DNA of 64,000 nt from a virus, in IMG/VR virus record IMGVR_UViG_3300035181_002344, one strand, 5' to 3'. A program made the position numbers and the translations under genes. This document shows positions 5,601 through 49,992 of this stretch, piece by piece (within the stretch, counting starts at the first letter, position 1; each line of letters begins with the position of its first letter). A model generated the notes under the pieces. It saw nothing but the letters and a program-made list of their open reading frames with translations. It searched no databases and was not told where the DNA came from.

Positions 5601-7732
5601 CCACCAATCCGACATATTGGAAGTTATTTGTTATTAAAGGTGAAGTTGGTCCAGCTGGACCTCCAGGACCCGCTGGTCCACAAGGCCCTCAAGGCTTGCC
5701 TGGAAGCGGCTTAATATATGCTGGTCAATATAGTAGTTCGGAACTTTATGCATTAAATACCTTGGTTGGTTATAATAATAAAGTTTGGCGATCAAAAACT
5801 TCGACTCAAGGTAATGCGCCAACAGAAGGTTCTCCTTTTTGGGAATTATTCTTAACCGGAGAACCGGGTCCGCAAGGAAATCCAGGACCACAAGGTGCAC
5901 CTGGAACTGGTGTAACGTTTTTTGGCAATTGGGCAGATTCAACAAATTATCCGCAATATGCTATTGTTGTTAAAAATGATATAGTTTATATTGCCACCCA
6001 ATCGCATACATCTTCTAGCACAAATGCACCTGATGTAAATGTTGATTATTGGGCTATTATATCTAAACCAGGCCCGCAAGGGCTTAAAGGCGATACTGGA
6101 GAAGCTGGTCCTATGGGACCACAAGGACCAAGAGGTTTTTCTGGTGCTTCACTAAATTTTGCTGGGACATGGTCTGCCGAAGAAGCTTATTCAGTGAATG
6201 ACTTAGTTGCCTATGAAGGTTCAACATGGGTTTGTTTACAACCTAATTCTAATATTATACCAAGAGAAGGCACATATTGGACTGTATTTGTTAAACGTGG
6301 TCCAATGGGACCGCAAGGATATACTGGACCTCAAGGGCCAAAAGGCGATCCTGGTGGCTCATTTTTGTTTGCGGGTACATGGGACGGCACTATAAGTTAT
6401 CCTAAAGATACACTTGTTACTTATAATGGAAGTGCTTATGTGTCTTTGCAGGCTTCTGCAAATAAAAGCCCAGAATCTAATCCAACATATTGGATAAAAA
6501 TAGTTGCCAAAGGTGATAAAGGCGACAAAGGAGATCGAGGTGAAACTGGTCCGCAAGGTCCCCAAGGATTCACTGGTCCGCAAGGACCTAAGGGAGATAG
6601 GGGTCTTCCGGGTGCAGGATTAATTCCACTTGGAACGTGGGATTCTTTAACAACTTATGGCAAATGGTCTTTAGTCACTTATAATGGCAGTTCTTATTAT
6701 GCTAATGTAGATAATCAAAATGTTATCCCTTCATCTAATTCTTTTGTATGGACCTTATTTGCTTCAAAAGGTGATCAAGGAGTACAAGGCATTCAAGGTC
6801 CACAAGGGCCTGTCGGGCCTGAAGGGCCTGTTGGTCCACAAGGACTTCAGGGTGTACCTGGTATGGTATATAAAGGCACTTGGTCTAGTACGACCCCATA
6901 TGCAAATGGTGATGTTGTTTTTTATAATGGCAATTCTTTTATATGCGTGCAAGCTAATAATAATCAAATTCCTCAAGAAGGATCAACTTATTGGTCGTTT
7001 TTATCAAAACGCAGTGTATATAATTTCCATGCTGGTGCTGGAATTACTATTCAGCAGAACGATCCCGATGTAACAATAACCAATACTATTGATTCGGCAC
7101 AAGAAATAGTTTATCAAAATACAGATTATCCCACGTTTGGTAGTGTAAAAGATGCATTGGATAAATTATTATATGCACCCGTTAAAATCACATCTTTTAC
7201 TGGCGGAGCTACCTATGAAAAAGGCATAACTGTCGTATCAATCGTGCTCGATTGGACAATAAATAGACCAATAACAAGTCAAAACATCAATGGTACATCT
7301 TATGCTGTTGATGTTAGACATGCTCCTATAAGTGGATTATCTTTAACAACAGATACAACATTTACATTGACCGCAACAGATAATGTAAGTACAGACACCG
7401 CTCAGATACAAATACTCCTTAGAAATAAAAGATATTGGGGCGTTTCTTCTTCAGCCTCATTAACCGATGCTCAGATTATAGCTTTAAATTCAGAATTTGC
7501 AACAGATAGAATACAGACAAGAGTTTTTGATTGTACGGGCGGGCAATATTTTTATATTATTTATCCTTCTGCATGGGGTGCGGCAACTTTTAAGGTCGGC
7601 GGAATGATTCAAACTGATTTCTTACTTACTACCCGCTCTTTTACCAATGCTAGTGGCTGGACAGAAAGTTATAATATATACCGTATTTATAATTTGCAAC
7701 ACGGTAGTAAAATTCAAGTGGAGGTTTCATAA
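2663..7732 (+). CDS. Long tail fibre with 20 CBM5/12-like modules and collagen (Gly-X-Y) linkers
   Basis: 20 copies of [WYF]xGx[WY]...Y...VxYxG..[YW]....P.....W interleaved with GPQGPxG/KGDKGD runs. Confidence 0.85.
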   Translation: MKNYGTLINAPIRPNDNADSYPVALSNEIQGGVHLVNTVTDRDNIPSERRQEGMLVFVSTDQKTFQLFGGVTNDHWIEVDFGNSAKLAFQLNSVPYPETTTLNIQGAGASALYDVGTKKFTLLIPGMNTWRGAWAENTPYALNDLVHYNGNVYIATQAHTSTSTTPDQDINKWDTFASRGSVGITWKGTWDGGTYKLYDAVTYNGSTYICILEHTNIVPTNEAYWNLLVSKGDTGPQGPVGPQGPPGIYTLTYAGHWSAAVTYSVNNFVSYDGALWFCNTNNQGNNVPGVSPFWDLMVGKGDPPAHEWNPPSIRFQNPDGTWGPYVNIQGTKGMVWRGDWSDSTDYPVDSVVYYNGSSYILTDTIIAGEYPKEPSKNSKWQQVVEKGDVGITYRGVWNSQTTYYRGDMVFYEGSVYMYIYATPGITSEPTDISQTPQWQLVINGIQYRGTFDSNNTYYPYQMVSYDGRTYILNQTTPFYPTSNQYAYPGYYANWVRVTPDSFVYRGNWVSGQKYYYFDIVKFKNCYYLYQNLNPKYSSIDPPKDSDWALWQITLSFKGDWSAVTTYYLGDVVKYEGAAYICNVGQGIVPPTDPAKNPVIPGTDDSYTKIVDKGDTGPQGPPGVGLTASYDSYDPRITYPPLTLVRHNGKQWYTKIETTGIEPAEGPNWGLFTDSGPQGIQGPPGPKGMTWKGAWNAAIQYSIADAVGYEGNIYYALTTNTNKIPTTSPNDWDLFVQRGEKGLPLVYRGQWSKTTLYLKDDTVHYNGNIYIALRDNTNVTPGSSAADWEVFVSKGDQGPIGPPGPQGSQGEQGPPGINLFPFGQWDINTTYEPGALVSWDGSTWECIATNMGITPGLQPQYWRLFVSKGDPGLQWKGTYSGSTQYYKRDVVYRSGASYICLMDGVISKDPSYPPYQGLYWDIFTVAVKGDKGDQGERGPAGVGLTYLGDYDPTESYPTNVLVSYQGNTYYSILASYGKTPSTNPTYWKLFVIKGEVGPAGPPGPAGPQGPQGLPGSGLIYAGQYSSSELYALNTLVGYNNKVWRSKTSTQGNAPTEGSPFWELFLTGEPGPQGNPGPQGAPGTGVTFFGNWADSTNYPQYAIVVKNDIVYIATQSHTSSSTNAPDVNVDYWAIISKPGPQGLKGDTGEAGPMGPQGPRGFSGASLNFAGTWSAEEAYSVNDLVAYEGSTWVCLQPNSNIIPREGTYWTVFVKRGPMGPQGYTGPQGPKGDPGGSFLFAGTWDGTISYPKDTLVTYNGSAYVSLQASANKSPESNPTYWIKIVAKGDKGDKGDRGETGPQGPQGFTGPQGPKGDRGLPGAGLIPLGTWDSLTTYGKWSLVTYNGSSYYANVDNQNVIPSSNSFVWTLFASKGDQGVQGIQGPQGPVGPEGPVGPQGLQGVPGMVYKGTWSSTTPYANGDVVFYNGNSFICVQANNNQIPQEGSTYWSFLSKRSVYNFHAGAGITIQQNDPDVTITNTIDSAQEIVYQNTDYPTFGSVKDALDKLLYAPVKITSFTGGATYEKGITVVSIVLDWTINRPITSQNINGTSYAVDVRHAPISGLSLTTDTTFTLTATDNVSTDTAQIQILLRNKRYWGVSSSASLTDAQIIALNSEFATDRIQTRVFDCTGGQYFYIIYPSAWGAATFKVGGMIQTDFLLTTRSFTNASGWTESYNIYRIYNLQHGSKIQVEVS

Positions 7733-10940: not shown

Positions 10941-12767
10941 ATGGGTGCTTTATCTACAAATAAATATGGCTTTGATTATAATAGACTTCCTAAAAAAGAG
11001 ATACTCGAAGAAAATATTCGATTTCTAATTTATGATATCAATAATCTTTTTAGGTCTGCTAAGCAAAATGAATTATTATTTGATAACTATGTCAATATTT
11101 TAGATGTAGATAAAGTTGATAAGTTGTTCAAAAAGATTCTTAGGCTTAGAAAAAAGTATGCAGCTTTTTTAGCTTTATATTCCAGAGATGCCAATGATGT
11201 CAAGTATTTAAATCTTGATGACCAAACGGATTGGCTTAATCCTAATCATCCATTATTTTCAAAGTTATTAGCTGATCCAAAAAATTTATCTGCTGATTAT
11301 ACAGATAAAAAAATGGTTATTTCTAAGGGTAAGCTGTCTTTAAATTATAAAGATGCTGCTATTGGTGATATACAAAATTTTGAAATAAGCTCTCCTGATA
11401 TTGAAGCTGGAATTGCAGGTACATATAAGAATAGCTATATTATCAAAACATCCCCAGAAGATATTTTTATTGATGTTCGCATTTCGCTAACAAAACGATA
11501 TTTGCTAAATTATATATCTTTTACCCCAGCATCGTTTAATACATTCTATTTATATTCTGGTTTTTATAAAAAGGTCGACGGCACTAAAGAATCCATTCCT
11601 GATATTTATAATAATAAAGCCACTAATAAATCATTGTTTTATTTTTCTCCTGTCTATACAAATGAAATAACTATTAGATTTAAGCTTATTAATTATAAAA
11701 GAACAAACAGGATGAAAAATTATACAAATAAAGATCTTGCCGAATATTTTTTACAACACCCCTATGATTATCAAACGACAGCCGATACTGAAGGCTATTA
11801 TTATATATATAATTTTGGTATTTTGGATGCCGCTGTCGGTTACAAGGCAGCAGATACGCATGGTATTTTTGTATCTAAATTTATTGATGTTGGAAATATT
11901 TCCAGAATATCGTTAGAAAGCGACGTTGTAAAAGATAAAGTGGATGTTGAATATTATTTATATTTAATTGATAAAGGCGATTCTATTAGAGAGACTCTTA
12001 TTCCGATACTTCCGTATGGCACAACAACTATAGAACATGAGGTTGTTTTTCCTAGAAAAGTGGCAAATAGTTATTTTGCTTATTTATCATTTGTGCCAGA
12101 TCCAGATTCTCTTACCGTTTATGCAAATGGCATCTCAATGTCTAAAGGCAGATATATAGTTAATGATAAAGAAATTAAGTTTTTGAACCCGCCACATTCA
12201 TCTGCAGTTATAACGGCTACCTATAATCCGTTACATGCTACTAAATCATATCTGGTAGATATTAATGGGGAAACGCAAAAATATACAAAAACCCAGTCAT
12301 TTAAATTCTACGAGTGTAAAATCTCTGATGTTGACAAAACTTTATTTTATGAATTAGATTACTTATTTGATCCGCATGATGTTTCTCTTAAAACATATAT
12401 TAATGGCGAAGAAATAAACAAAGGACGTATATTGTCACTGAATGGACGAATAATTAATATTGATTTGCCATATATAGAAAATGGATATTTGACTGGATGT
12501 GATTTTGTGGTTAGTGGAAATTTATATTCGGACGTTCCACCAGAAGATTCTTCATTTTACTATTCGCAAAATGGAGAAGTTTTTTACAATACAGAGAAAC
12601 TTCCTTCAAATTATAGTGGTACTCAGGTATCTGTTATTGTTGTTGCTCATAAATATTCTGGAAATAATTATGATGGCGATTTAGCAATTGATCAATTAAA
12701 ATTATTCACTGGTAATGCAGACGTTCTAAATGGCACACTGATCAATTTTACTGGAATACATAAATAA
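10941..12767 (+). CDS. Putative baseplate/virion structural protein
   Basis: 608-aa ORF in structural block; architecture resembles the next two ORFs. Confidence 0.45.
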   Translation: MGALSTNKYGFDYNRLPKKEILEENIRFLIYDINNLFRSAKQNELLFDNYVNILDVDKVDKLFKKILRLRKKYAAFLALYSRDANDVKYLNLDDQTDWLNPNHPLFSKLLADPKNLSADYTDKKMVISKGKLSLNYKDAAIGDIQNFEISSPDIEAGIAGTYKNSYIIKTSPEDIFIDVRISLTKRYLLNYISFTPASFNTFYLYSGFYKKVDGTKESIPDIYNNKATNKSLFYFSPVYTNEITIRFKLINYKRTNRMKNYTNKDLAEYFLQHPYDYQTTADTEGYYYIYNFGILDAAVGYKAADTHGIFVSKFIDVGNISRISLESDVVKDKVDVEYYLYLIDKGDSIRETLIPILPYGTTTIEHEVVFPRKVANSYFAYLSFVPDPDSLTVYANGISMSKGRYIVNDKEIKFLNPPHSSAVITATYNPLHATKSYLVDINGETQKYTKTQSFKFYECKISDVDKTLFYELDYLFDPHDVSLKTYINGEEINKGRILSLNGRIINIDLPYIENGYLTGCDFVVSGNLYSDVPPEDSSFYYSQNGEVFYNTEKLPSNYSGTQVSVIVVAHKYSGNNYDGDLAIDQLKLFTGNADVLNGTLINFTGIHK

Positions 12768-12796
12768 TATGTTCAATAATTAAAGAATGATATTAA

Positions 12797-15700
12797 ATGG
12801 CTTATATTGGTCATATTAAACTCACAAGTAAATCGACTGTTAGGTCTTATGATAATGCTCCGCATAAGAGCTATGGGCATATTAAACTCACAAGTAAATC
12901 GACTGTTAGGTCTTATGATAATGCTCCGCATAAGAGCTATGGGCATATTAAGCTCACAAGTAAGTCGACTGTTAAGTTTTTAGATAATTCTCCGCGTAGG
13001 GGCTATGGGCATATTAAGCTTACAGGTGCGTCGAAAGTTGAGGTTTATGATACTTCCCCACGTAGAAGTTATGGGCATATTAAACTCATAAGCATATCGA
13101 CAGTTGAGTCTTATGATAATTCTCCGCATAAAGGATATATCAAGTTTACAGGTGCATCGAAATATAGTGGCCTTGATAATAATACCACTCCCGATACATT
13201 TCATGATATTGGTCTTATTAGTCTTACTGGTACATCGACAACTAAGTTTTATGATAATTCTCCACATATTGGTCGTATTAAATTTAAGGGCATTTCTACT
13301 GTCAAAACTTCCAATAGCCCTCGATATACTGGTAATATTATACTCAGAGGTATTTCTACTGTCAAAACTTCTGGCAATCCTATATATGCTGGCAATATTA
13401 TACTAAGAGGTGCTTCTGTTGTCAAAACCTTTGGTAATCCTATACATGCCGGTCACATTATACTTAGAGGTATTTCTACTGTTAATACCCATGATAATCC
13501 TAAGCATATTGGTCATTTCATAGTCAAGGGTGTTTCTACATATATAATTCCTGCTAGTGCATTTAAAATTTCTGATACATCCGATATTCTTTTAAGTGGT
13601 ATTTCACAAGTCAAAGAATCTATCTTAGATGATTCTGTTCGATATTTTACTTTTGATACTAATGATCCTCCAGTTGCTTCTCAAGTTGAATTGGCAAATG
13701 AATATGTTCCTTTAGCGCAATTATTTCCAAAAATGATAAATACTGATACCTTTGTGCATAAAGAGCACATTTACGTTGGGGATATTATTGAGCCATTACA
13801 TTTTAATAGATTTTTTGACAATATAGCTGTTGATTTGGATTTTATAGAAACATCTTTGAATAAAATATCGGCCGATATAGAACAATCGCGTTTAGATTTT
13901 GAGAACAAAATCAATGATGTTGATTATGGTATTCGCAAAGCCGATGCAATTCTTAATGAATTTGCTTTATATGCATATGCGGTTAGCGAAGAAATATCTG
14001 GTGTAACAGAAACATTTAATAAACTTACAGATATTGCCGATTCGCAAAATATATTTATTAATACCGAAGAAGGTATTGCCACACTTCCAATTGAATCTAA
14101 GGAATTGATTGAAATAGGTAACGATTTTTATGTTCTTACGGGAAATGGTGCTTTTACAGATAATCATGATTTAATTAATGCATTTGACGATGATAAAATG
14201 TCCTATGCAGAATATGTAGCCTCTGATGTTGATGATATAACATTAGAAATAGAAATAAAACTTAAACGCGAAGAAATAATTAACAATATTGTATGTGAAT
14301 TTCTCGATGAGAATGATGCGGAAACTACATTTATTGAGAGCTTTTCTATTAGTCGAGATAATATTTCTTATACAAATGTTCCTATCAATGATAATAACTC
14401 TATTACCTTTATACCGCATATTGTAAATTATATGCGTTTACGTTTTAAGAAACATACTAGTAGCTCTGAAATAATATCCATAAGAATAGCAAATATCGCT
14501 GTATATAGAATATCGTATAAAGACACTGGCAGTGCAATTATCAATAAAACGATACCACCTACAAAAATTGATGAAGTAGCTCTTCATACTAAAAATGCGA
14601 TTGTAACAGATTCAGCCATATCGGCAAATTTTTCTGTGTCTTTTGATAATAATCAGTTCGTTGATATTCAACCGGTTCAGGCGAATACCACGGATGAAAT
14701 TTTATATATTAATTTCCCAGAGAAGAAAAACAATTTATCTGTTGTAGATAATGAATTTACGAAAATTGCAATTAAAATGGTACTTTCTCGCAATGATGAT
14801 ATTAATGATTTAGCTAAACTTTATACTGATGAGTTATTTGTACAAACGGAAATTGTTACGTTTCCATCAAAACCGCCATATGCATTTACATTAAAAAATC
14901 GCCCGAAACAAAATACACTTTCTATCCGCGGTATTTCTAATATGATCCTTGGAACAAAACAAAATAGCATACCGCTAGGTAATGTCGAAGCCTCTAAATA
15001 TACTTATGTTTTTGCCCTCCCATTCGACACCAAAGATATGGAAGAGATTTATATTAAAGATTATAAGCTTACAAAGTTTAGTAATTTTAGCGATTTAATG
15101 GACTATGATTTAACTGGTTACTATATTAATCCATCTGCTAATGTTTTAACGATTAATATCCAAAAGCACGTTATTCGAACTGGAGATGTAGGCTATGGAG
15201 ACCCATGGATCCAGAATTATTCAGAAAAAACTGCTTATGCCGACTATAAATACGAAGATAATGCATTAGCTGGATCACCGATTAGTCTTTATCTTAAAAG
15301 CGATATAATTCATGCGCCCCAAAAGAATATATTGCCACTTACATTTTATACGGATTTAATAAAAGATGATATTACCATCCAAAGACTTCAACTTGATTCG
15401 GATAATAATATACTTACAGAAATTGTTAGTGATATTGTTCCGGCTGGTCAGAAAAATATCAAACTATCTGCTATTCCCGTTAATCTCGAAGAAATAACGC
15501 TTCTAAATAGTGATCGTGTTGAATATGTTGATGGCGTTACAGAATTTCAATATGCTACTGAGTTTTCTTATTCTGTTGATATTTCTAATGGTATGTTGTA
15601 TTTGCGTGATCCATTCCCTGAAGATGTTTCCATATCATATCGCAAAGAACTTCGTTCTATTATTTCACCAAATCTCTATCATATTGGTCCTGATGGCAAA

Positions 15701-32534: not shown

Positions 32535-33581
32535 CTAATCTTTAAAATAAACAGTGATAATTTTCTTAAGTTTTCGCTCTTTAGAAACAGACAAGATCAT
32601 TTGAGATGCTTGGCTGTATGGAGCTGCAATCGTATCGGCAAAATCATCATATCCGCACATAGAAGAGGAACGAACAACTGTAGTTTTTCCAACTTCTACT
32701 ATTAACTGATAATGGTAATGGCCCGTTAGTACAACGTCTGCATTATGTATTCCATGCAATACAAAAGCTTCTCTATCACTGGATGGTGTTCCCGCAGATT
32801 TTTTCATAATATGTCTGAGATGAAAATTCCATCCTTTGATATTTATATTTATTGACTGTGAATCGCCAAGATTTGTTTTGTATTCATTGGTAACATTTTT
32901 CATTATATTCGGGTCATGCAATTGCAAACTTCTGATTGTCGTTTCCCACGCTTTGGCTACGCCTTTGTCCCAATTGTCATCGGGATGACGTGAGAGTTTT
33001 GATTTTGGCGTTCCGTGGTTACCTGGAACCCAATGAAAATCAACGGGCAATAATTTATCGTATTTTTCTATGAAAAAGTCATTAAGCTTCTTCATATTTT
33101 TATTCAACGATGTAATAAATGCCGCAGTTTGCGCATGTACAATATCATCGGTTAAAAATCCTTGCGTCGGATATGTTGAACCATCGCCTTCTATATGGTC
33201 TCCAAGCATGCATATTTTAACCTGATCGTATGTATCTGGATTGTTATTAATTTCTTCGATTGCTTCATCAAAGAGCTGTGACATTCTTTTATCCGCAATC
33301 TTGAGATTAAATACCTCTTTGTATGGCGGTTTTAGAGAATGCCTTATTTTACCGAAATGGTTATCTGAAATTACTATTACTAAAGCTTCTTTATCGTCGG
33401 ATATTGGTATTTTAGGATGATATATTTTTTTATGATCTCTTAAAAGTGTCTCTAATACATCGAGCCAATTACGACGGATTCTTGTTTTTGAAGCATTATT
33501 TTGTATTTCTAAATTAGAAAGAGTGGAGACAAAGTCGCACTCTTCCTCATTAAGTGGCTCTAATAATTCATTTTCATTCAT
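32535..33581 (-). CDS. Calcineurin-like metallophosphoesterase
   Basis: SDNHFG, GDHIEG, GNHG, GHYH motifs. Confidence 0.85.
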   Translation of the reverse strand: MNENELLEPLNEEECDFVSTLSNLEIQNNASKTRIRRNWLDVLETLLRDHKKIYHPKIPISDDKEALVIVISDNHFGKIRHSLKPPYKEVFNLKIADKRMSQLFDEAIEEINNNPDTYDQVKICMLGDHIEGDGSTYPTQGFLTDDIVHAQTAAFITSLNKNMKKLNDFFIEKYDKLLPVDFHWVPGNHGTPKSKLSRHPDDNWDKGVAKAWETTIRSLQLHDPNIMKNVTNEYKTNLGDSQSININIKGWNFHLRHIMKKSAGTPSSDREAFVLHGIHNADVVLTGHYHYQLIVEVGKTTVVRSSSMCGYDDFADTIAAPYSQASQMILSVSKERKLKKIITVYFKD

Positions 33582-36007
33582 ATTGCTTCCATGTTATAAA
33601 GTGGATCTTTGATTTTTGCCAGTCCTAACAAGTATTCAGCTGTATAACTTTGTCCGATGAATTTACCATATATTTGGTATTTGCCATTTGTTTTAGACAA
33701 TTTATTATATAGCTGGTCTAATAACGGAATTGACCGTATCTCTAAAGGAATATCGTATTTTGTTTGCTCATTCCTTTCTGGCAACTTGATGACTGACATA
33801 CTATTTAACCAATATGATTCTTCAGGGTCGTCCGTTCTTATACCGCTAACTCCAACTGCAGATCCTTCTAGAGTTTTAATCATATTTTTATAACTGGACA
33901 TTTTTCGGCTTGTTATTATATATTTTGATTCTTTGTTATTTAAGGTGCGTACAATAACTAAAGCACCTTTTCCAGATTTGAAAGCAATCACCTTTTTTAC
34001 AATGCCATAGGTCATATTCTCGTTCTTTTTCTTGGCTTCTGCAATTGCTAAGCGATAACGTTCAAATGGATCATATTTAATATTCAAACCGAGAGTTTCT
34101 AATTCGAATGCTGCAAGCTTTTCATCATCATACTCCAGCATTTCAGGAAATGAAATCCATTCCTTTTTGAATGGTAGTAATGACCATTCTTTTGTTTTGT
34201 AATGTTTAATGAATTTAAGCAAATAATCGATATAACGAGTTTCTCCTTCTTTGATTGCAAATACTTGTGATATTTTAATCATTGAAGAAAATGCGCCCGA
34301 TTTTATCATTTGCTCAAGTACATTAGATTTAACATCTGTTCTATATATAAAATCTGACAATGATTTAAATAGCCCGTGTTTTTGTCTTTCTGCCATGAAG
34401 GCTTCTGCTGATTGCACGCCTACATTTTTAATACCGCCTAATCCAAATAATATTGTTTTGTCATCAATAACTCTGAAATTAGCATAACTTCTATTGATAT
34501 CTGGGGGATATAGTTTAATTCCGTAATATTCGGCTTCTTTTAAGAATGCTGTAACGCTTTCTTGATCGCCTATGTCAGTAATAATATTTGCGGTATAAAA
34601 TTCTGCTCTATAATGTGTTTTCAAATATGCTGTTTTAACAGCTAACACTGAGTAAGCAAGAGCATGGGACTTATTAAACGCGTAATTTGAAAAGGATTCC
34701 ATTTCACTCCAAAGAGCATTGATATCATCAAGGGACATCCCTTTTTGCATTGCTTTTTCTGTGAAACGAACCTTTTCTTTGGCCATTTTCTCTGTAATCT
34801 TTTTAGCAACGATCTTTCTAAATTCGTCTCCTTCATGGTCAGAATAACCTGCTAAATCTTGCACTAGCCTTTGAATTTGTTCTTGATATATGAAATATCC
34901 ATAGGTATCTTTGAAGATATCTTTTACCAAAGGAAATCTTTCGCCATGCGGCAGAATATGTGTTGGTTGGCCGCCATTGCGGATAATGATTATTTCCTTT
35001 AAGAATTCCATCGGGCCTGGTCGAAAAGCCGCATTGATAAGTGTGATGTCATTTAAATTTGTTGGCTGAAAATCTCTTACAACTCTTGAAATGCCATCTC
35101 CTTCAAATTGGAAAATACCAAGCAATCTACCTTCGGCCATAAATTTATATGTCGCCGGATCATCTAATGGAATATCGTCCAATGTTAACTTTATTCCTCT
35201 GTTCTCTTCTATCAGCTCAAGACATGTTTTTATCACGTTTAATGTAGATAATCCGAGAAAATCCATTTTTATTAAACCAAGCTCTTCAGCTTCTTGCATC
35301 GTGAATTCGACTATAGGTATGTCGATGCCATCAACAGTTTTATCTTGTTGCCTCCAAACTGGTGCAACTTCGTTGATTGGCACCGATGATATTACATACC
35401 CTGCCGCATGCTGCGAAGGAGATTTTATGAGACCTTCTAGTTTAATAGCGTGGTCAACAATTCTTTTGAGATCTTCATCTTTCTCATATGCTTTTTGGAA
35501 TTCCTTGAGCCCTCCTTTAGGGTCCATTATTTTCTTGAACGTCCAAGCTCGACCTAAAATGGCTGCGGGTATTAGTTTAGCATATTGATCTGCTTTAGCA
35601 AAATCATAGCCTAAAACTCTTGCTGCTGTACGAAGGGCATTTTTAGCCCATATGTAATTTCTTGCGGATAAACCAGCTACTTTGTCACTGCCATACTTAT
35701 CAATAACATATTGAAGCACATGCAGTCTATCGGCATCTGGAAAATCAATATCTATATCAGGTATTGTTCCGCCTTTGTATTTTACTGAACCTAATGGTTT
35801 TTCTTCAGCTATGCCAATTAGATAGGCTACCATTGAATTAACCTGCCGATTATCAACAGTAATTCTTTTTTCTAATATTTCAAGGAAATAGTCTTCCATC
35901 TCGGCTATTTCAATAGCACCTATTTCTTTTTTGTAAGCTTGATATTCAATGTCATTGAGTTGTTTGAGTCTGGGGCTCTGTTGACATATCTGTCTTAGCT
36001 TCTGCAT
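33578..36007 (-). CDS. dnaE: DNA polymerase III alpha, C-terminal part (palm/fingers/HhH)
   Basis: PDIDIDF, HAAG, KMDFLGL, GIFQFE, YQEQ, FNKSHA, PPDIN.S, GLGGIKNVG. Confidence 0.95.
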   Translation of the reverse strand: MQKLRQICQQSPRLKQLNDIEYQAYKKEIGAIEIAEMEDYFLEILEKRITVDNRQVNSMVAYLIGIAEEKPLGSVKYKGGTIPDIDIDFPDADRLHVLQYVIDKYGSDKVAGLSARNYIWAKNALRTAARVLGYDFAKADQYAKLIPAAILGRAWTFKKIMDPKGGLKEFQKAYEKDEDLKRIVDHAIKLEGLIKSPSQHAAGYVISSVPINEVAPVWRQQDKTVDGIDIPIVEFTMQEAEELGLIKMDFLGLSTLNVIKTCLELIEENRGIKLTLDDIPLDDPATYKFMAEGRLLGIFQFEGDGISRVVRDFQPTNLNDITLINAAFRPGPMEFLKEIIIIRNGGQPTHILPHGERFPLVKDIFKDTYGYFIYQEQIQRLVQDLAGYSDHEGDEFRKIVAKKITEKMAKEKVRFTEKAMQKGMSLDDINALWSEMESFSNYAFNKSHALAYSVLAVKTAYLKTHYRAEFYTANIITDIGDQESVTAFLKEAEYYGIKLYPPDINRSYANFRVIDDKTILFGLGGIKNVGVQSAEAFMAERQKHGLFKSLSDFIYRTDVKSNVLEQMIKSGAFSSMIKISQVFAIKEGETRYIDYLLKFIKHYKTKEWSLLPFKKEWISFPEMLEYDDEKLAAFELETLGLNIKYDPFERYRLAIAEAKKKNENMTYGIVKKVIAFKSGKGALVIVRTLNNKESKYIITSRKMSSYKNMIKTLEGSAVGVSGIRTDDPEESYWLNSMSVIKLPERNEQTKYDIPLEIRSIPLLDQLYNKLSKTNGKYQIYGKFIGQSYTAEYLLGLAKIKDPLYNMEAI

Positions 36008-36368
36008 TGTTTTCCTCGCTCAATTCTCTAATAACCGACATAATTTCTGTTTCTTTTTCTGGTGGATAGTTTCCGCGAGAACGCTTTGTAGAAAATAATG
36101 TTTTGTTATTTTTCTCTTTAGCGCTGTATTGAAATGAGCACCCTGTGGTTTTGTGAAACTTTTCAAATAGTTTACGATATTCCTTGTCATTAAATGACCA
36201 TTGACCACCGCATTGTTTACAATAGTATGTATAGGGGCCTTTTTCAAAGCCTTCAGTTGTGGCCGCTTTTAGAAAGTCCAAAAGTGTTTTTTCGCCAAAC
36301 TCTTTTGATAGGTCATTTAATTTGCCGGTAAATATTAGTTCACCAATGTGTGCGTTGTTATTATCCAT
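35952..36368 (-). CDS. Hypothetical Zn-binding protein between the dnaE halves
   Basis: CKQC...H...C; overlaps both neighbours. Confidence 0.55.
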   Translation of the reverse strand: MDNNNAHIGELIFTGKLNDLSKEFGEKTLLDFLKAATTEGFEKGPYTYYCKQCGGQWSFNDKEYRKLFEKFHKTTGCSFQYSAKEKNNKTLFSTKRSRGNYPPEKETEIMSVIRELSEENNAEAKTDMSTEPQTQTTQ

Positions 36369-37698
36369 GTGTTCCTCGGTGTTTCATCCATTGCTCAAAT
36401 GGATATTCTGGAAAAGATATTAGTGGTATTGCGCTTCTGCCTTTATTTAGAAATCGGCCAAAGCTTAAATCGTATTTTATTGGGTCTATATCTGTTATTC
36501 TAAGCGCATAAGATACAAGGCTTCCAGCTGCAGAGCCTCTGCCTGGTCCTACTAGAATTCCATGAGTCTTAGCCCATACAACATAATCAGAAACTATTAA
36601 GAAATAGCTAGCAAAGTTCATCTGAGTGATTATTTGAATCTCATATAGCAATCGATTTTTATATTCCGCGGGAACTTTATTTGTCCCCATTCGTTTAATA
36701 AGACCTTCTATTGCTCGTTTGCGAAATAGTTCGTCTTCATGACGAATATTTCCAAACGTCGGAATTTTATAATTACCGAACTCGAATTCAAAGCTTACTC
36801 TATCTGCTATCTCTAATGTATTATTTATAGCTTCTGGATATTGTGAAAATCTCTGTTTTAAATATTCCTCGTCGGGCAGATAGTAACCATCTCCCGGATA
36901 TTTTCCAAAATCTGGATCATCTAAGGTTGTTTTCTTTCTATCGGCTAACATCATATCGTGTATAGTCACATCTTGGTCAAGCACCATATGTGTGTCGCCG
37001 GTTGCAACTGTTTTAATTTTATATTTGTCGGCGAATTCTAATATTGCTTCTCTAATAATAGCTTCCTGTCTTAACCCATGGTTCATAATCTCTAAATAAA
37101 ATCTGTCGCCGAAAATTTCCTTATGCCATTTAATTACATCTTCTGGACTTTCTTTACGATGTTTATCGCAAATATGTCCATCGCTACAATCAGCGCATTC
37201 TATAGCCGTTAGTGTTTCATAGCCATCTTCGTCTTTGAATGAGATATTTCTTTGGTCCATAATAGTTTTTGATAAATTAGAGGCAAGGCATCCAGATAAT
37301 ACTATTAAGCCTTCATTGTATCTGCGTAATAATTCTCTATCTATGCGAGGCTTACGATAAAACGATTCAGCTTTAAATGATTCGTTTACTAAAGTGCATA
37401 AATTCTGCCAGCCCTTTTTATTCATAGCTATCAATGTTAAATGATAGTAATGGTCTATCTTATTCTCTTTATCAAATCGCGAACGATTAGCAACATAAGC
37501 TTCCATTCCTAAAATAGGCTTAATATCAACGGCTTTCATTGTTTTGTAAAATTCAACTGCTCCAGATAATGTTCCATGATCAGTTAAAGCAATTGCCGGG
37601 TATTTTAGTTCTTTTGCTCGTTTTGCTAAATCTGGAATCTTGGCAACACTATCCATCGTAGAGAATGTCGTGTGCTGATGTAGATTTACGAAGTTCAT
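36361..37698 (-). CDS. dnaE: DNA polymerase III alpha, N-terminal part (PHP domain)
   Basis: LHQHT.FS..D, TDHG, G.EAY, HLTL, GPGRGSAAGSLV.Y.L.IT.IDP...RFLN. Confidence 0.95.
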   Translation of the reverse strand: MNFVNLHQHTTFSTMDSVAKIPDLAKRAKELKYPAIALTDHGTLSGAVEFYKTMKAVDIKPILGMEAYVANRSRFDKENKIDHYYHLTLIAMNKKGWQNLCTLVNESFKAESFYRKPRIDRELLRRYNEGLIVLSGCLASNLSKTIMDQRNISFKDEDGYETLTAIECADCSDGHICDKHRKESPEDVIKWHKEIFGDRFYLEIMNHGLRQEAIIREAILEFADKYKIKTVATGDTHMVLDQDVTIHDMMLADRKKTTLDDPDFGKYPGDGYYLPDEEYLKQRFSQYPEAINNTLEIADRVSFEFEFGNYKIPTFGNIRHEDELFRKRAIEGLIKRMGTNKVPAEYKNRLLYEIQIITQMNFASYFLIVSDYVVWAKTHGILVGPGRGSAAGSLVSYALRITDIDPIKYDLSFGRFLNKGRSAIPLISFPEYPFEQWMKHRGTHG

Positions 37699-40527: not shown

Positions 40528-40634
40528 TTTTCAATCACTTTAATCTCCTATCTCTAGGGGAGTCGGCGTTGTCTAGTCGTCGGTTGTTATAACGCGAGGG
40601 CTTTAGACGAAAACTAGCGAACGCGTCGACTTTC
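40528..40634 (+). repeat. Structured motif copy 1 (AATCACTTTAAT + small hairpin + long hairpin)
   Basis: Shares TTTTC(T)AATCACTTTAAT(C)TCCTA-N4-TAGGGG-W-GTCGGC...GAC-W-TTC with 41106..41190. Confidence 0.8.
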
Positions 40635-40651
40635 GTAAACCTTATTACTTA

Positions 40652-40681
40652 AATATAATGAAAACCCGTAATACGTGTCAA
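40652..40681 (-). promoter_or_regulatory. Sigma70-type promoter firing toward recA
   Basis: TTGACA-N18-TATATT on the minus strand with AT-rich upstream sequence. Confidence 0.65.
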
Positions 40682-41105: not shown

Positions 41106-41190
41106 TTTTCTAATCACTTTAATTCCTATAACTAGGGGTGTCGGCTTAGCAACTGAATTTAAAATCATTAGTCAGCGTTAGCTGACATTC
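41106..41190 (+). repeat. Structured motif copy 2
   Basis: See 40528..40634; closing pair covaries (A-T vs T-A). Confidence 0.8.
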
Positions 41191-41712: not shown

Positions 41713-42084
41713 TTATTCATTTTTATGTTTGTATTTATATAATTCAATTATAATTTTTGGCAATTCGTGTCCATACACATCAGATTTGCAATATATTTTA
41801 TCAAAACAATTACAATCTTCTGGTAATTGCTCCATTAAATATGCCGTATATCCTACTATTAAGCTTTTAACATCTCTGCTCTTTAATTCATTTGCAATAG
41901 TACAACCATCGTTTTTTGGCATATTAATATCACTAATTATCACATCGTAGTCATTAGTTAGCGATAGTTCAATTCCTTCTTCAACATCTTTAGCAAAATC
42001 TGGTTTGATATCATATTTTCTAAATGCTAATCGAAGCATCATTAACATTGATTCATCGTCGTCAATTATTAGCACTTTTATCAT
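41713..42084 (-). CDS. Stand-alone response regulator receiver (CheY-like; likely start 42084)
   Basis: VLIIDDD, SDINMP..DG, YTA and K motifs intact. Confidence 0.88.
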   Translation of the reverse strand: MIKVLIIDDDESMLMMLRLAFRKYDIKPDFAKDVEEGIELSLTNDYDVIISDINMPKNDGCTIANELKSRDVKSLIVGYTAYLMEQLPEDCNCFDKIYCKSDVYGHELPKIIIELYKYKHKNE

Positions 42085-42262
42085 GTTTATTAGACCTGCA
42101 TTGTTTATGATATGATTGATATTCAGTATCTTGATCATCACCTATTATTTCGCGTATATGTTCTTCATTGCTTCTAATCCACGTGTGGCATATAGAACAT
42201 TTACGAGCTAATGGGCTTTTTACCAAAAGTAAGTTTTTATTTATCTTTTTTATTATTTGCAT
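42062..42262 (-). CDS. Small Zn-finger protein
   Basis: CSIC...YHKQC. Confidence 0.45.
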   Translation of the reverse strand: MQIIKKINKNLLLVKSPLARKCSICHTWIRSNEEHIREIIGDDQDTEYQSYHKQCRSNKHDKSANN

Positions 42263-42285
42263 TATACAATAGCCATTGATTTGAG

Positions 42286-42316
42286 AAAAAAAACTAAGTG
42301 GCATATAGCCACTTAG
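42286..42316 (-). terminator. Intrinsic terminator
   Basis: CTAAGTGGC/GCCACTTAG 9-bp stem followed by T8 on the minus strand. Confidence 0.8.
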
Positions 42317-42381
42317 CAGGAGATGTCAGTTAAGGTTGGGGAGAACCATATGAAAGCACTGACAAAATGATGAACATGTGT

Positions 42382-42603
42382 TCAATAAATATTTAATTCT
42401 TTAATGTAAGCTAAATCTTCATCGCTAATATTAATATTGATTTCGTCAATATTAATATCGATGCCGATTGTACCTCTATCGGCTTTATTGTCTATTACCG
42501 CTATTTCGTTAATTGCTTTATGTACGGCCTCTCTTAGTGAATTCGCTTCAACAGCTAATACAACTGACCGCTCATATTTAATTGGAATATTGTAAAATCT
42601 CAT
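42382..42603 (-). CDS. Hypothetical protein
   Basis: 73-aa ORF with V.VEA.SL.EA motif common in small phage proteins. Confidence 0.6.
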   Translation of the reverse strand: MRFYNIPIKYERSVVLAVEANSLREAVHKAINEIAVIDNKADRGTIGIDINIDEININISDEDLAYIKELNIY

Positions 42604-42691
42604 AGTATTTCTATATTAGTTAAAATGTAATTTATTTTTTTTTGGTGTATTTTCAATGTAAACGCCAAAGGTTTAAACTTATTTTCGTCTT

Positions 42692-43040
42692 AAAAAGTTC
42701 CTTTATACCCCGATTTCTCGGGGTTTAAAAGGAAGACCGTGATACGGCTATTCGCCCTTATGGGCTCTAACAAGCCAGTTATACCACACAGCAGCAGCCG
42801 TTGCTGGCATTTATGACAGCAACAGCCGCTGCTGTTAATTGCTAAGCCATTATTGTTTAATGGTTTCCTCTTAGGCTCCTTTGCAGGAGCCCATCAAAGG
42901 AATCGTGCGACGCACTGTTACTACCAGGACTCTTCGAATCCATCGTGCGGTGTCCATGGTAGAGATCTAGATCCAATGCATCCTATACAGCTACAACTAC
43001 GGTTGTAGCTGTTGCTGATTATGTCTCAGATGTTCTGAGT
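42692..43040 (-). ncRNA. Candidate ~350-nt structured ncRNA, family unknown
   Basis: ORF-free, GC-enriched gap with at least 7 stems; GCAA and GAAA tetraloops and most G-U pairs favour the minus strand; ends in a hairpin plus U-tract. Confidence 0.65.
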
Positions 43041-43066
43041 TTTTCATTTTCTTTAATAATTCATTT

Positions 43067-45850
43067 TCAACCACAGCCTGTTGTTTCACCACAGCTTAAA
43101 CATGTATTGCATTTACCGGTCTTTACCATCAAGCCGCCACAGATATGGCAAACTTCACCAGTGTGGATGCTTTTTTGTTCTTCGTGTTTTTCTTGTATTT
43201 CAGGCTGAATTGATATTTGTTCTTCGCTTACTTTATCCTGGCTATCTGGGTTTTCTTGTTTATCGAGATAATTGAACATTAAGAATTTGCTTATGTAATC
43301 AATAACACTCGTAGCAAAGCGGATATCGGCGTTTGTTGTAATTCCTGATGGTTCAAATTTAGTGTTTAAGAATTTCTGGGTCATAAATTCTAATGGTACA
43401 CCATATTGTAGTGCAATACTAAACATCGTTGCCCAGCTATCCATGAGTCCAGAAATTGTTGAGCCTTCTTTAGACATATTAACAAATATTTCGCCAGGTT
43501 TATTATCGTCATAGAATCCAACTGTTAAGAATCCTTTGAATCCGCCGATACTAAATTTATGCGTAATTGACTTTCTAGTATTTGGCAGCTTCTTTCTTAT
43601 TGGTTTTGGTCTTCCATTTGATAATCCGTCTTGGACTATTTCCACGGTTTGTTTTTCGCTTTTTGTATTTAATGGTTGACTGGATTTACAGCCGTCTCTA
43701 TAAATTGCTAAAGCTTTTAGATCTTTGTGATATGCCATTTTATAGGCTTCCATGACATCTTCTATGGTTGCCGAATTTGGCATATTAACAGTTTTGCTAA
43801 TAGCACCAGACAAGAATGGTTGAATGGCTGCCATCATATTAATATGGCCTTGCCATGGTATATTTTCACCAGTTCCAAATGATGTGGCAAATATACTTCT
43901 ATGTTCTGGTGCTATTGCTGTATCGCTAACTAATTTATTTTTCTCAATATCTGTAAGTATCGATTGTATAGTTTTTTCTTCATATCCTAATGTTTCTAAG
44001 GCGTATCTTATTGATGGGATTGTTAAGATTAATTCTCCGCCGCCGACTAATTTTTTATAGCTTACTAAACCTAATACTGGTTCAACTCCTGTTGTTTCAC
44101 AATCCATCATAAAACTAATTGTTCCCGTCGGTGCTAACACTGTTACTTGAGCATTTCGCATTGGTATAAAATTGCCCGAAGCATCACGCTCTGTAACTGT
44201 TTTAATTTGTTCTATTGCTTTATCTGTAATATCAGATAAATATTTGTCATCGGGGTGCAAAATTGATATTCTATTTTGTAAAACTAGTGTAGCATCATAA
44301 TGTTTACGTAAAACATTAGCCATTGCTTCTGCATTTTTCTCCCATTCTTCAAATGCACCTAATTCTTTGCCTAACTCACCAGATGTTGCATATGAAGTAT
44401 TATGTATAAGTGCAGAAATTGCTGCTGCTAAATTTCTTGCTTTATGCGAATCATATGGTAATCCATAACTTAATAATAGAGCACCTAAATTTGTAAAACC
44501 TAAGCCGATAGTACGATATTTCTTAGTTTCGGTGGCTATTTTCTCTGTAGGATATGCTGCTTCGCTGATCCATATATCTTTGGCCACAGTTGCTATACGA
44601 GATGCATGTATTAGGCCATCAATATCGAAACTATTAATCCAAGCGTTATCTACTTTTTTATGTGAGAAAAACTTCATTAAATTTAATGAGCCTAAATTAC
44701 ATGATGTATCGTCTAAAAACATGTATTCGCTACATGGATTTGAAGCAGTGATTGTTCCGCTATTTGGGCATGTATGCCATTCGTTAATCGTATCGTGAAA
44801 TTGAATGCCTGGATCTCCTGTTAGCCATGCGCATTCTGCTGCTTCTTTAAATAGATTTTTGGCCTTTAGCCATTCAATAACTTTATATCCGCCTTCTTTT
44901 TTCAGGAGCCAAGAATCATCTTTGCTTCTATAAAATTGTCCTTGTGCATTTGCATAATTTGGATCAAATTCCACTGCCGTTGGATATCTTTCTAATAAAG
45001 CCCAATCTTGATCTTTTTCTACAGCTTCCATAAAAGCATTTGTAGCTCTTATTGATTGATTGCTGTTCTGAAAATATACGCTGCCATAAGCACCTTTTGG
45101 ATCGTCAAATCTATTATTCCAACCAGCTGCAATTAGTGCTTGAACTTTCTTCTCTTCTTCTGCTTTTTGCCAAATGAATTCTCTAATATCTCCATGATCC
45201 ACATTAAGAATTTCCATTTTGGCTGCTCGTCTATTTTTGCCTCCAGACTTAGTTACATTAGCTACGGCATCATAAATTTTCATAAAACTATTAGGTCCAG
45301 AAGCTTTTCCGCCGCCAGATACACCTTCTCTTGAGCTTCTAAGTTTGCTTCTGTTGCTGCCAGCGCCTGAGCCGCCACGGAATACCTGCATTTCAACAGC
45401 TGCATTTGCACCTATTGATTCAATTGTATCTTCTGCTGATATAATAAAGCAAGCGGATACTTGTTGTCTAGACCATGGGTTTCCTATGTTAAACCATACA
45501 GGAGAATTAAATGAATACATTTGATATAAAAGCATATACGTTAATTCTTCTGCATAGATTGTCTTATCTTCATCGCTTGTAAAATAACCTTGCTTTTGTC
45601 CCCATTGGACATTTGTATTTACTACGCGATTTATTAATTGTTTAAGAGAATATTCTCTTTCTTCTGTGTTTAATTTCCCGCAAAAATATTTACTTGCTAT
45701 AATATTTATTGCGTTTTGCGAATAGAAATCTGGGAATTCTACCTTTTCTTGTTTGAATTGAGATCCAGGAATTTCTGCATCTACTGTTATCCAATTCACT
45801 GTGTCAAATGGATGAACTCCTTCTTTAGTAAATCGACGATTAAACTGCAT
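43067..45850 (-). CDS. nrdJ: Class II (B12-dependent) ribonucleotide reductase with C-terminal TSCPD and Zn ribbon
   Basis: FNSP, SACF, GG..RRAA.M, NPCSEY, CNLGSLN, APTGTIS, ISKTVNMP, YRDG. Confidence 0.95.
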   Translation of the reverse strand: MQFNRRFTKEGVHPFDTVNWITVDAEIPGSQFKQEKVEFPDFYSQNAINIIASKYFCGKLNTEEREYSLKQLINRVVNTNVQWGQKQGYFTSDEDKTIYAEELTYMLLYQMYSFNSPVWFNIGNPWSRQQVSACFIISAEDTIESIGANAAVEMQVFRGGSGAGSNRSKLRSSREGVSGGGKASGPNSFMKIYDAVANVTKSGGKNRRAAKMEILNVDHGDIREFIWQKAEEEKKVQALIAAGWNNRFDDPKGAYGSVYFQNSNQSIRATNAFMEAVEKDQDWALLERYPTAVEFDPNYANAQGQFYRSKDDSWLLKKEGGYKVIEWLKAKNLFKEAAECAWLTGDPGIQFHDTINEWHTCPNSGTITASNPCSEYMFLDDTSCNLGSLNLMKFFSHKKVDNAWINSFDIDGLIHASRIATVAKDIWISEAAYPTEKIATETKKYRTIGLGFTNLGALLLSYGLPYDSHKARNLAAAISALIHNTSYATSGELGKELGAFEEWEKNAEAMANVLRKHYDATLVLQNRISILHPDDKYLSDITDKAIEQIKTVTERDASGNFIPMRNAQVTVLAPTGTISFMMDCETTGVEPVLGLVSYKKLVGGGELILTIPSIRYALETLGYEEKTIQSILTDIEKNKLVSDTAIAPEHRSIFATSFGTGENIPWQGHINMMAAIQPFLSGAISKTVNMPNSATIEDVMEAYKMAYHKDLKALAIYRDGCKSSQPLNTKSEKQTVEIVQDGLSNGRPKPIRKKLPNTRKSITHKFSIGGFKGFLTVGFYDDNKPGEIFVNMSKEGSTISGLMDSWATMFSIALQYGVPLEFMTQKFLNTKFEPSGITTNADIRFATSVIDYISKFLMFNYLDKQENPDSQDKVSEEQISIQPEIQEKHEEQKSIHTGEVCHICGGLMVKTGKCNTCLSCGETTGCG

Positions 45851-48893: not shown

Positions 48894-49154
48894 TTATTCT
48901 TCCTTATTTGTATTATCTTGTTTATAGCTATCGGGTCCCATTAATTTATATAAGTTTTCATGTGGGACTGGTTCTCTTTTGCCTGTGAATTTTCCTCGTT
49001 TTTCTGGATCTAAATGATCACGAGAATAGAAGATAGCGCCACAATTTAGACAAGCTTCATCTGCGTCAAAAGCTTTCCATATTTTGTTAACTTTGTCGCT
49101 ACCACAAAACGGGCATTTGTTATCGAGAATATTTGGTGTTGTGTCAGTTGTCAT
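48894..49154 (-). CDS. Zn-ribbon protein
   Basis: CPFCGS...CLNCG; start overlaps RT stop. Confidence 0.65.
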   Translation of the reverse strand: MTTDTTPNILDNKCPFCGSDKVNKIWKAFDADEACLNCGAIFYSRDHLDPEKRGKFTGKREPVPHENLYKLMGPDSYKQDNTNKEE

Positions 49155-49992
49155 TTAAGATTCTCCGTGCAAGTTTTTGTAAATAAAAATAGTTTTTCTT
49201 GTTATCTGCTAGATTAAGTTGTTCGATTTTTCCACGTATATGCGGATTGATCTGACGAATATTAATTAGCTCTTTGATAATGTTCTGAATATATTGACGC
49301 TCAATATTTCGTTTAACATTAACCACGATGCCTAAAACTAATTGTCTTTGATAATAAGGCATCACTTTACTTTTTCGTAAGTTTAGTTCGAAACCATATC
49401 GCTTACAAATATCGTTAATAATCGATATAGTTTCTTTTGGAACAGAGTTACCAGAGATATATAGATTATCTCCATAATTTGAATAACTCCATTGGTTTCG
49501 ATCGCATATTTCCTGTATACTAACATCAATCGGTTGTCGTATAGCATTAGCGATATGTGGAGATGTTATGAAACCTTGTGGAAGTTTTCCATTGTACGTT
49601 AATAATTCAATAAAATCTTGTAAATCAATGTTAAGCAAATTAAGTAACTCGGGGATTTTCTGATTATAAACAAATAGCCCGATTAGATGATCTTTCGTAA
49701 TGTTATCATAGAAATTCTTAATATCGGCTTCTAAAACGTATCGTTTGCCAACATGAATATTAGCACAGTCTCCCCTTGATCTTCCTTTTATCCAAGCATA
49801 GCTTGCATGATGAATATTAAAAACATTGTTATCAATGAAATAGTCAAGAATATATTTCTGTGCCTTTTTATATTCTGAATTTGGAGCAATAATATGACGA
49901 CGTTTTATTTTGCCTTTCTTTTTTCTATGCTGCACATACGTTGATACATAATTTGCTTTATTGGCAAGTATATTCTTTATAAGCTGACGCAT
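49144..49992 (-). CDS. Minimal retron-type reverse transcriptase with YGDN motif
   Basis: R.I.AP...K..Q, CANIH (NAxxH region X), ADIKNFYDNI, LPQG..TSP.IAN, YGDN, N..K, VLGIVVN (VTG region Y). Confidence 0.9.
   Translation of the reverse strand: MRQLIKNILANKANYVSTYVQHRKKKGKIKRRHIIAPNSEYKKAQKYILDYFIDNNVFNIHHASYAWIKGRSRGDCANIHVGKRYVLEADIKNFYDNITKDHLIGLFVYNQKIPELLNLLNIDLQDFIELLTYNGKLPQGFITSPHIANAIRQPIDVSIQEICDRNQWSYSNYGDNLYISGNSVPKETISIINDICKRYGFELNLRKSKVMPYYQRQLVLGIVVNVKRNIERQYIQNIIKELINIRQINPHIRGKIEQLNLADNKKNYFYLQKLARRILNDN

Follow-up and report, generated by a model that had tools for sequence, protein, structure and literature searches.

What is encoded in the 463-nt gap (42604-43066), free of open reading frames (ORFs), that lies between nrdJ and a 73-aa ORF of an uncultured phage, and is it connected with the reverse transcriptase (RT) of the same genome? 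The phage is IMG/VR record IMGVR_UViG_3300035181_002344 (154,304 bp, estimated to be 75% complete, 33% G+C). The window, by which we mean the whole 64-kb stretch of DNA that was analysed, corresponds to bases 53958-117957 of this record, and positions given without further specification are those of the window. A sequence-only reading of the window had proposed that the gap holds a phage non-coding RNA, and that this RNA is a candidate template in trans for the RT. The first part of this proposal stands, in that there is a structured non-coding segment on the minus strand with a GAAA-capped terminator, but the template role is not supported. The genes and intergenic features that are relevant here are the following:

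49144-49992: RT with a YGDN motif (RVT_1, 5.5e-18), beside ThiF-like and JAB-like genes and a Whirly protein
43067-45850, minus strand: nrdJ, class II B12-dependent ribonucleotide reductase of 927 aa
42604-42691, minus strand: A/T-rich spacer outside the RNA, with promoter-like sites for the 73-aa ORF
42382-42603, minus strand: acidic 73-aa ORF, a separate unit, 75% identical in the homologous contig L016 (see below)
42293-42317, minus strand: strong terminator (10 bp + T7), a short distance 3' of the 73-aa ORF

The nrdJ gene is complete, its product aligning full-length to its homologues and carrying the Pfam domains Ribonuc_red_lgC (2.6e-123, the barrel), Ribonuc_red_2_N (class II N-terminal) and TSCPD. 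The structured RNA lies directly 3' of its TGA stop. Past the 73-aa ORF, the gene order is receiver-domain protein, Hsp20, RecA and a split DnaE, and with the exception of Hsp20 (plus strand) the genes around the gap are on the minus strand. The 73-aa ORF has no family in Pfam or PHROG; since it has terminators on both sides (hairpin H7, described below, and 42293-42317), it can be regarded as a single-gene unit. A listed 80-aa ORF (42062-42304) overlaps the terminator at 42293-42317, yet its product is 82% identical in L016. A promoter scan placed the promoter-like sites of the spacer at 42662-42634 and 42656-42629; the spacer is variable between phages, and L016 holds two extra hairpins there, after H7. 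The structured region had been described as ORF-free, which is correct except for a 51-aa TTG frame on the plus strand that overlaps the indel-rich H2 region.

On the minus strand, the gap folds with -166.8 kcal/mol (z = -12.5, 0 of 100 shuffles being as good), as compared to -150.7 (z = -8.0) on the plus strand, which confirms the strand preference that had been noticed earlier. The same asymmetry is seen when the RNA of the window and that of L016 are folded on the nrdJ-sense and the opposite strand (-156.6 vs -138.0 for the window, -140.4 vs -126.6 for L016). A scan of both strands of the 154-kb genome in 150-nt windows with a step of 50 nt (approximately 6,170 windows) ranked two windows from this place at the top, both on the minus strand (z -6.5 and -5.5). 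Furthermore, among 31 nrdJ 3' flanks from phages and bacteria, the one studied here is the extreme (z = -11.7, with a median of about -3). The G+C content of the structured region is 0.48 as compared to 0.33 for the genome, and neither iterons nor a change in GC skew were found in it. There is thus a genuine, strand-specific (minus) and highly structured non-coding segment 3' of nrdJ, and no other place in the 154-kb genome is as structured.

Positions 42692-43040 consist of eight consecutive hairpins, H0 to H7, which read as follows in the sense of the minus strand:

43040-43066, minus strand: unpaired A-rich leader straight 3' of the stop codon, with a weak -35-like ATGAAA at 43042-47
43025-43039, minus strand: H0, 6-bp hairpin CUCAGA-ACA-UCUGAG, identical in L016
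42987-43012, minus strand: H1, perfect 11-bp hairpin (dG -15.5), preceded by CAUAAU (43018-43023)
42909-42982, minus strand: H2, irregular hairpin of 74 nt, a variable module
42865-42902, minus strand: H3, two-tier hairpin (dG -22) with outer stem UUCCUUU/AGAGGAA, inner G+C stem and GCAA loop
42847-42863, minus strand: H4, 6-bp A/U hairpin CCAUUA-AACAA-UAAUGG, 6/6 pairs identical in L016
42788-42835, minus strand: H5, near-perfect 19-bp hairpin with two G-U pairs (dG -36.2)
42739-42787, minus strand: H6, irregular three-tier hairpin whose outer stem includes two G-U pairs; it contains the word CUGGCUU and is a variable module
42692-42734, minus strand: H7 with its U tract (hairpin 42698-42734), two-tier (dG -18.9), the terminator and 3' end of the RNA

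The stems that the sequence-only reading had picked out (the 11-bp, the GCAA-capped, the 19-bp and the GAAA-capped stem, with the UUUUU run) are all there, the inner GCAA-capped stem of H3 spanning 42874-42891. The pairing CUACCA-GGAC/GUCC-UGGUAG is likewise present and lies inside H2, together with the palindrome GAUCUAGAUC and the first copy of CGCACGAU, a word that does occur twice. In the minimum-energy fold, the hairpins are independent of each other, like beads on a string, and there is no multi-way junction or long-range helix apart from A/U pairs (UUAAAGA) with the U tract of the terminator. H7 has an outer stem UUCCUUU/AAAGGAA and an inner part ACCCCGA-GAAA-UCGGGGU followed by C-UUUUU, and hence is a G+C-rich stem-loop with a U tract on the transcribed strand, as expected of an intrinsic (Rho-independent) terminator. 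Because it is the sole U-tract hairpin on the minus strand, we take H7 to be the terminator. H0 is a terminator-like site on the plus strand, but has no U tract on the minus strand, such that transcription should not terminate at the nrdJ stop codon.

Does this RNA belong to a known family? Rfam 15 (4227 models, including RNase P, group I and II introns, riboswitches, 6S, GOLLD, ROOL, OLE and ribozymes) gave no match at gathering thresholds in the whole 64-kb window, and a permissive search of it (E <= 10) gave chance-level matches only (E 0.6-9.6), to unrelated families and far below their cut-offs. The statement that no family can be assigned is therefore upheld by this check. No tRNA or tmRNA was detected by a dedicated search, and blastn against 50,697 phage records gave no match, nor was there an exact occurrence in IMG/VR of a 22-mer from H6 or of the conserved 18-mer from H3-H4. 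A covariance model of H3-H4-H5a (R1), when run against five phage records, found its own source and nothing in the other four, and blastn of the RNA against the fetched loci and its own 154-kb genome returned no second copy and no other copy of any hairpin.

Specific identities were also rejected. The weak resemblance to the P4 pairing of RNase P that had been remarked upon dissolves on inspection: no RNase P model matches at E <= 10, the CR-I GAGGAAAGUCC / CR-V ACAGAANNCGGCUUA pairing that closes the P1-P4 core is not found, GAAGAGUCC being used in a local stem of H2, and CUGGCUU sits in H6 and is replaced by unrelated sequence in L016. Furthermore, more hairpins and a terminator are found where the 3' strand of P1 is expected. 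A group I intron is rejected, as nrdJ is complete, there is no downstream exon and Rfam shows no match; a template of a diversity-generating retroelement is rejected as well, as the window has no direct repeat involving 42.6-43.1 kb and the 154-kb genome no second copy. For a cis-regulatory leader or riboswitch of the 73-aa ORF, no aptamer family was found in Rfam, and H7 precedes the ORF start by about 90 nt (window) or about 125 nt (L016), with a variable spacer that has promoter-like sites in between. A receptor for a GAAA tetraloop in H3 has its CCUAAG partner strand in the wrong register and differs in L016, and a CsrA-type sponge is not indicated by seven GGA words where about six are expected. 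With respect to coding, a +1 frameshift extension of nrdJ was rejected (the frame is open in both phages, and all differences are non-synonymous), as were small ORFs within the RNA, since L016 no longer has their AUG. The word AAATGAATTATTAAAG, which recurs, is not a promoter, since it has only seven loose matches that mostly encode NELLK, and a repeat of the two-tier hairpin that seemed to occur at genome position 152,906 turned out to be part of a coding frame. Likewise, the region is not a duplicate of the nrdJ tail (a tblastn search with the last 44 residues in the 770 nt that follow, best E 2.5; the same holds for locus L004).

Relatives were sought via nrdJ in IMG/VR, JGI metagenomes and GTDB genomes. 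This yielded one true homologue of the RNA, L016 (Ga0272446_1033723), a metagenome contig of 2.6 kb. Its nrdJ tail shows 93% identity at the protein and 90.5% at the DNA level, and the contig further includes the corresponding non-coding region as well as the 73-aa ORF, the receiver protein and Hsp20. At the protein level, an identical nrdJ product (P0001) is encoded by three further contigs, and nrdJ relatives of 53-56% identity (P0002-P0005) exist in other archives (Logan, ENA, NCBI). The L016 RNA, too, is strongly folded (z -9.7). As a neutral yardstick, we used the four-fold degenerate sites of nrdJ, of which 89/122 (73%) are identical between the window and L016. Against this, the RNA is a mosaic (identity over aligned columns, window vs L016):

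5' leader, H0 and H1: 90% identity, 2 gap columns
H2: 73% identity, 36 gap columns
H3, H4 and H5a: 88% identity, 5 gap columns
H5b and H6: 68% identity, 27 gap columns
H7: 90% identity, 0 gap columns

Three modules are thus conserved above the four-fold sites (binomial p 1e-4 to 3e-3), while H2 and H5b+H6 are not and are rich in indels. In the conserved hairpins of these two sequences, 45 pairs are unchanged and two are broken, both at loop edges. Four pairs differ on one side (C-G to U-G in H1, U-A to U-G and U-G to C-G in H3, and G-U to G-C in H5a), and H7 has one compensatory change from A-U to U-A, so that the search for homologues, which the earlier reading had advised, did return changes that preserve pairing. 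In H1, this leaves 10 pairs unchanged next to a different loop, and in H3 11 pairs unchanged, 2 kept by the one-sided changes and 1 broken at the loop edge. Each of the four one-sided changes exchanges a Watson-Crick for a G-U pair or the reverse, and would allow pairing on the nrdJ-sense strand only. For a comparison of two sequences, the stem changes are suggestive of an RNA on this strand, short of statistical proof.

The variable modules behave differently. H2 is a longer hairpin in L016, where insertions on both strands pair with each other. The 5' arm of H5 alone (H5a, 42816-42835) makes an 8-bp hairpin, and L016 has nothing more of H5: the 3' arm (H5b) cannot be aligned there as a pairing partner, its segment builds a different hairpin with downstream sequence, and the H6 slot is filled by a different hairpin of similar size. 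In the window, H5 looks partly duplicated. As H2 and H5b/H6 are rebuilt and still are hairpins, structure is maintained even where architecture is not. The loops and linkers of the conserved modules are fairly well kept, including both GNRA loops and a stretch of 26 identical nucleotides that spans H3-H4, which hints at sequence-specific recognition. The conserved hairpins (H0, H1, H3, H4, H5a and H7) and base-pairing in general appear to be under selection, whereas one integrated three-dimensional fold does not. Two further proposals of the sequence-only reading are not supported by this comparison, since L016 keeps neither the GUGCG word of the proposed CGCAC/GUGCG pseudoknot nor the first of the two CGCACGAU copies that were to form a switch.

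The position after nrdJ turned out to be structured in other phages as well. In a 155-kb phage (G001, IMGVR_UViG_3300005573_000055) with a 52% identical nrdJ, the nrdJ-recA interval (L004:8830-10004) is 1175 nt long, ORF-free, on the nrdJ strand and ends in a terminator, and it is the most structured place of these 155 kb in the nrdJ sense. Its nrdJ end has A/T-rich iteron-like palindromes (TATCTATATAGATA), and three CUUAUC-GAAA-GAUAAG hairpins follow each other at distances of 121-135 nt. It shares no sequence similarity with the window RNA and is not matched by the H3-H5a covariance model. In G007, a 126-kb RT-bearing phage record with 34-44% identical nrdJ, more than 1.4 kb after nrdJ contain few ORFs and fold strongly (z -9.6 over the first 460 nt), with five copies of a AAGAGCTTCTCTT hairpin that occurs nowhere else in the record; again, neither shared sequence nor a covariance-model match with the window RNA was found. 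This array (L096:1-1500 = G007:C1:48285-49785, minus strand) is made of five or six units of 200-350 nt. Every unit opens with ATGAAYA, after which comes a palindromic hairpin, TATATAAGAGCTTCTCTTATATA, that can also be read as a mini-ORF, MNxFIYKSFSY. A complete RT-less phage of 64 kb, G004, has a structured nrdJ 3' flank, too (z about -6.4 to -7). The syntenic relative L013 (57-7360) retains Whirly, two unknown ORFs, nrdJ and RecA, but lacks both the RT and the structured RNA; a 727-aa ORF without Pfam match stands in place of the ThiF/JAB/RT genes, and the 3' side of nrdJ shows two plain terminators only. Among the syntenic relatives, the nrdJ-recA interval differs completely, and hairpin islands that are unrelated to each other occupy the position after nrdJ in several phage lineages (window/L016, G001 and G007). 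That three lineages independently have their most or nearly most folded RNA after nrdJ suggests that non-coding RNA is preferentially housed at this junction in these phages, and if this is so, the slot is a practical place to look for new phage RNAs.

Of the explanations that we considered, we tentatively favour a cis-acting structured 3' end of the nrdJ transcript, to which we would give a probability just short of even. We infer that the RNA is co-transcribed with nrdJ. The RNA polymerase coming from nrdJ would run through approximately 330 nt of stable, mostly G+C-rich hairpins (H0-H6) and would halt at H7, a GNRA-capped two-tier hairpin with UUUUU. The hairpin string could then shield the nrdJ message in cis from 3'-to-5' exonucleases, would leave no unstructured untranslated RNA for Rho or RNase E, and would insulate nrdJ from the separately promoted 73-aa gene. 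The duplex of H5 is, with its 19 bp, long enough to be a candidate RNase III site, and cleavage there could release a stable, hairpin-capped fragment. This reading is based on the minus-strand orientation of the neighbouring genes together with the stronger fold of that strand in both phages, and on H7 as its sole U-tract terminator. In addition, neither a Bacteroidota-type promoter word nor a strong sigma-70 promoter was found between the nrdJ stop codon and H1. The conservation of three modules beyond the four-fold sites, with pairs preserved in the conserved hairpins, is consistent with such a function, as is the fact that H2 and H5b/H6 remain hairpins while an ancestral segment has found different partners in the two phages. 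The beads-on-a-string layout and the unrelated islands after nrdJ in G001 and G007 also fit this reading.

Several points count against a cis-acting 3' end. One terminator hairpin normally protects a 3' end, and an extra 330 nt exceeds this need; L013 manages with two plain terminators; the conserved loops and linkers, such as the 26-nt run, hint at sequence-specific recognition; and the covariation evidence is thin, coming as it does from one homologue. If the RNA merely stabilises a 3' end, it is an unusually elaborate case of an ordinary device, whose main use would lie in annotating phage transcription units. In any case, the mosaic of conserved and freely rebuilt hairpins provides a natural map for mutation priorities.

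An independent, trans-acting non-coding RNA gene of about 320 nt, starting at approximately 43011 with H1, ending with H7 and binding a phage or host protein or RNA, is the main rival, possible but unlikely. Stable small RNAs usually have a 5'-terminal hairpin and a 3' terminator, and both are present here. A weak promoter, ATGAAA-N18-CATAAT (43047-43018, 9/12), precedes H1, and its -10 word CATAAT is identical in L016. However, the match is weak, the -35 word decays to ATAAAA in L016, and promoter-like sites are no more frequent than in shuffled sequence (22 found vs 27 expected). The conserved loops and linkers of H3-H4, the conservation of both GNRA loops and of modules beyond neutral sites, and arms of variable length (H2, H6) on a conserved scaffold, which are typical of real structured RNAs, would all suit such a gene. 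This is countered by the lack of a multi-helix junction and of any conserved long-range contact, by the failure of the covariance model to find a homologue in four other phage records, and by the absence of another copy in its own genome. A bolder version would have this RNA, with its own promoter, as a member of an undescribed class of lineage-specific hairpin-array loci after nrdJ in large uncultured phages (window/L016, G001 and G007). Such RNAs would function in trans, perhaps by serving as decoy or scaffold to a nucleic-acid-binding protein of host or phage, or as a substrate of the YGDN RT; we regard this as distinctly unlikely.

Slightly less probable still is that the feature resides in the DNA, the nrdJ-recA junction being a hyperplastic site that collects palindromes, be it as a replication or recombination site or through mobile hairpin cassettes, with the RNA fold as a by-product. 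The complete divergence of this interval among syntenic relatives would be expected from this, as would the fast gain and loss of hairpins, exemplified by the two additional ones after H7 in L016 and by the partly duplicated appearance of H5, and the iteron-like palindromes with which the G001 island begins. However, the G-U (in DNA, G-T) pairs and all four one-sided stem changes favour the transcribed strand, and conserved GNRA tetraloops and a terminator are features of RNA. The raised G+C content without iterons or skew change, the lack of a duplicated nrdJ tail and of further hairpin copies in the genome speak against a DNA element, too. We consider it a little less probable again that the segment is a non-functional, palindrome-rich remnant of decayed or shuffled sequence that persists in two close phages. 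Its only homologue is indeed a close one, L013 lacks the segment, and in two of the five modules change is as fast as at neutral sites or faster, with many indels. Yet three modules are significantly more conserved than four-fold sites, stem substitutions keep pairing, no other fold in the genome is as extreme, and both phages are highly structured even in the rebuilt sequence (z -9.7 for L016).

The weakest explanation is that the RNA is a template or scaffold, in trans, of the YGDN RT in the manner of a retron or DRT non-coding RNA, which we hold to be very improbable: while the RT has gene-dense flanks and no adjacent non-coding RNA, H5 resembles a long msd-type stem, and RT and structured nrdJ flank occur together in the window, G001 and G007 and are both missing from L013, the RT lies 6 kb upstream with seven ORFs, nrdJ included, in between, closing inverted repeats (a1/a2) are absent (the only end-to-end pairing is that of UUAAAGA with the U tract), in L016 an 8-bp hairpin is all that remains of the 19-bp H5, the window RNA is matched neither in sequence nor by the model in the G001 and G007 islands, nothing comparable was found within 10 kb of the RT in four RT-bearing phage records, RT-less G004 has a structured nrdJ flank all the same, and there is no pair of template and variable repeat. 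The link to the RT thus finds no support.

How does a structured nrdJ 3' end compare to known systems? Hairpins at the 3' ends of phage and bacterial messages are known as intrinsic terminators, as REP/BIME-type hairpins and as the RNase III sites of phage T7. The hairpins described here resemble 3'-end stem-loop stabilisers in that they come right after the stop codon on the transcribed strand, the last one being a G+C stem with a U tract, and in that they are modules evolving independently. They differ in number, with eight hairpins over approximately 350 nt as compared to one to three in the known cases. In contrast to REP, no repeated unit is shared with other sites of the genome. With T7 RNase III sites, the RNA has in common a duplex of sufficient length (about 19 bp), which is a candidate for cleavage.

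GOLLD and ROOL are large, ornate RNAs borne by phages and prophages (Rfam; cryo-EM study 10.1101/2024.12.08.627333). The RNA after nrdJ is likewise phage-borne, long, non-coding and very stably folded, with no protein partner nearby. Unlike them, it has no Rfam match at E <= 10, is much smaller, lacks multi-way junctions and long-range helices, and is restricted to a lineage rather than widespread. The closest counterpart by location is the G001 island, which occupies the same syntenic slot on the nrdJ strand, is ORF-free, ends in a terminator and is its genome's most structured place; the two have no sequence similarity, the G001 island being 1175 nt long with A/T-rich palindromes and its three GAAA-capped hairpins. 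Finally, retron msr-msd and DRT RNAs are also structured RNAs of a few hundred nucleotides with a long hairpin, in genomes with a retron-like RT. Of the hallmarks of msr-msd (adjacency to the RT, mostly directly 5' of it, a1/a2 closing repeats and a long conserved msd hairpin), none was found here: the RNA is not adjacent to the RT and has no a1/a2, its long hairpin is not conserved, and its presence does not track that of the RT. The sequence family is new, but its kind is ordinary.

Some further observations were made in the window. Downstream of the 73-aa ORF, the gene for DnaE (DNA polymerase III alpha) is split (33578-37698) into a 445-aa N-terminal and an 809-aa C-terminal ORF, and a 138-aa zinc-ribbon-like ORF (35952-36368) overlaps the junction of the two. 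A motif of approximately 40 nt, CCGAC(A/T)CCCCTAG..ATAGGA..TTAAAGTGATT, occurs twice on the minus strand (40530-40570 and 41110-41150), one copy being immediately 5' of recA and the other immediately 5' of a 68-aa ORF. Within it is a small hairpin whose 3' arm resembles a Shine-Dalgarno sequence, so that the motif may act as a common operator of translation. The top sigma-70-type promoter match of the region, TTGACA-N18-TATATT (11/12; 40652-40681, minus strand), lies about 115 nt 5' of recA, before a folded leader. Elsewhere in the window, a 1689-aa ORF (2663-7732) has many collagen-like GGxCCx repeats, and a 66-nt tandem repeat is present in 6-7 copies at the start of a 1066-aa ORF (12742-13526); both ORFs probably encode tail-fibre proteins.
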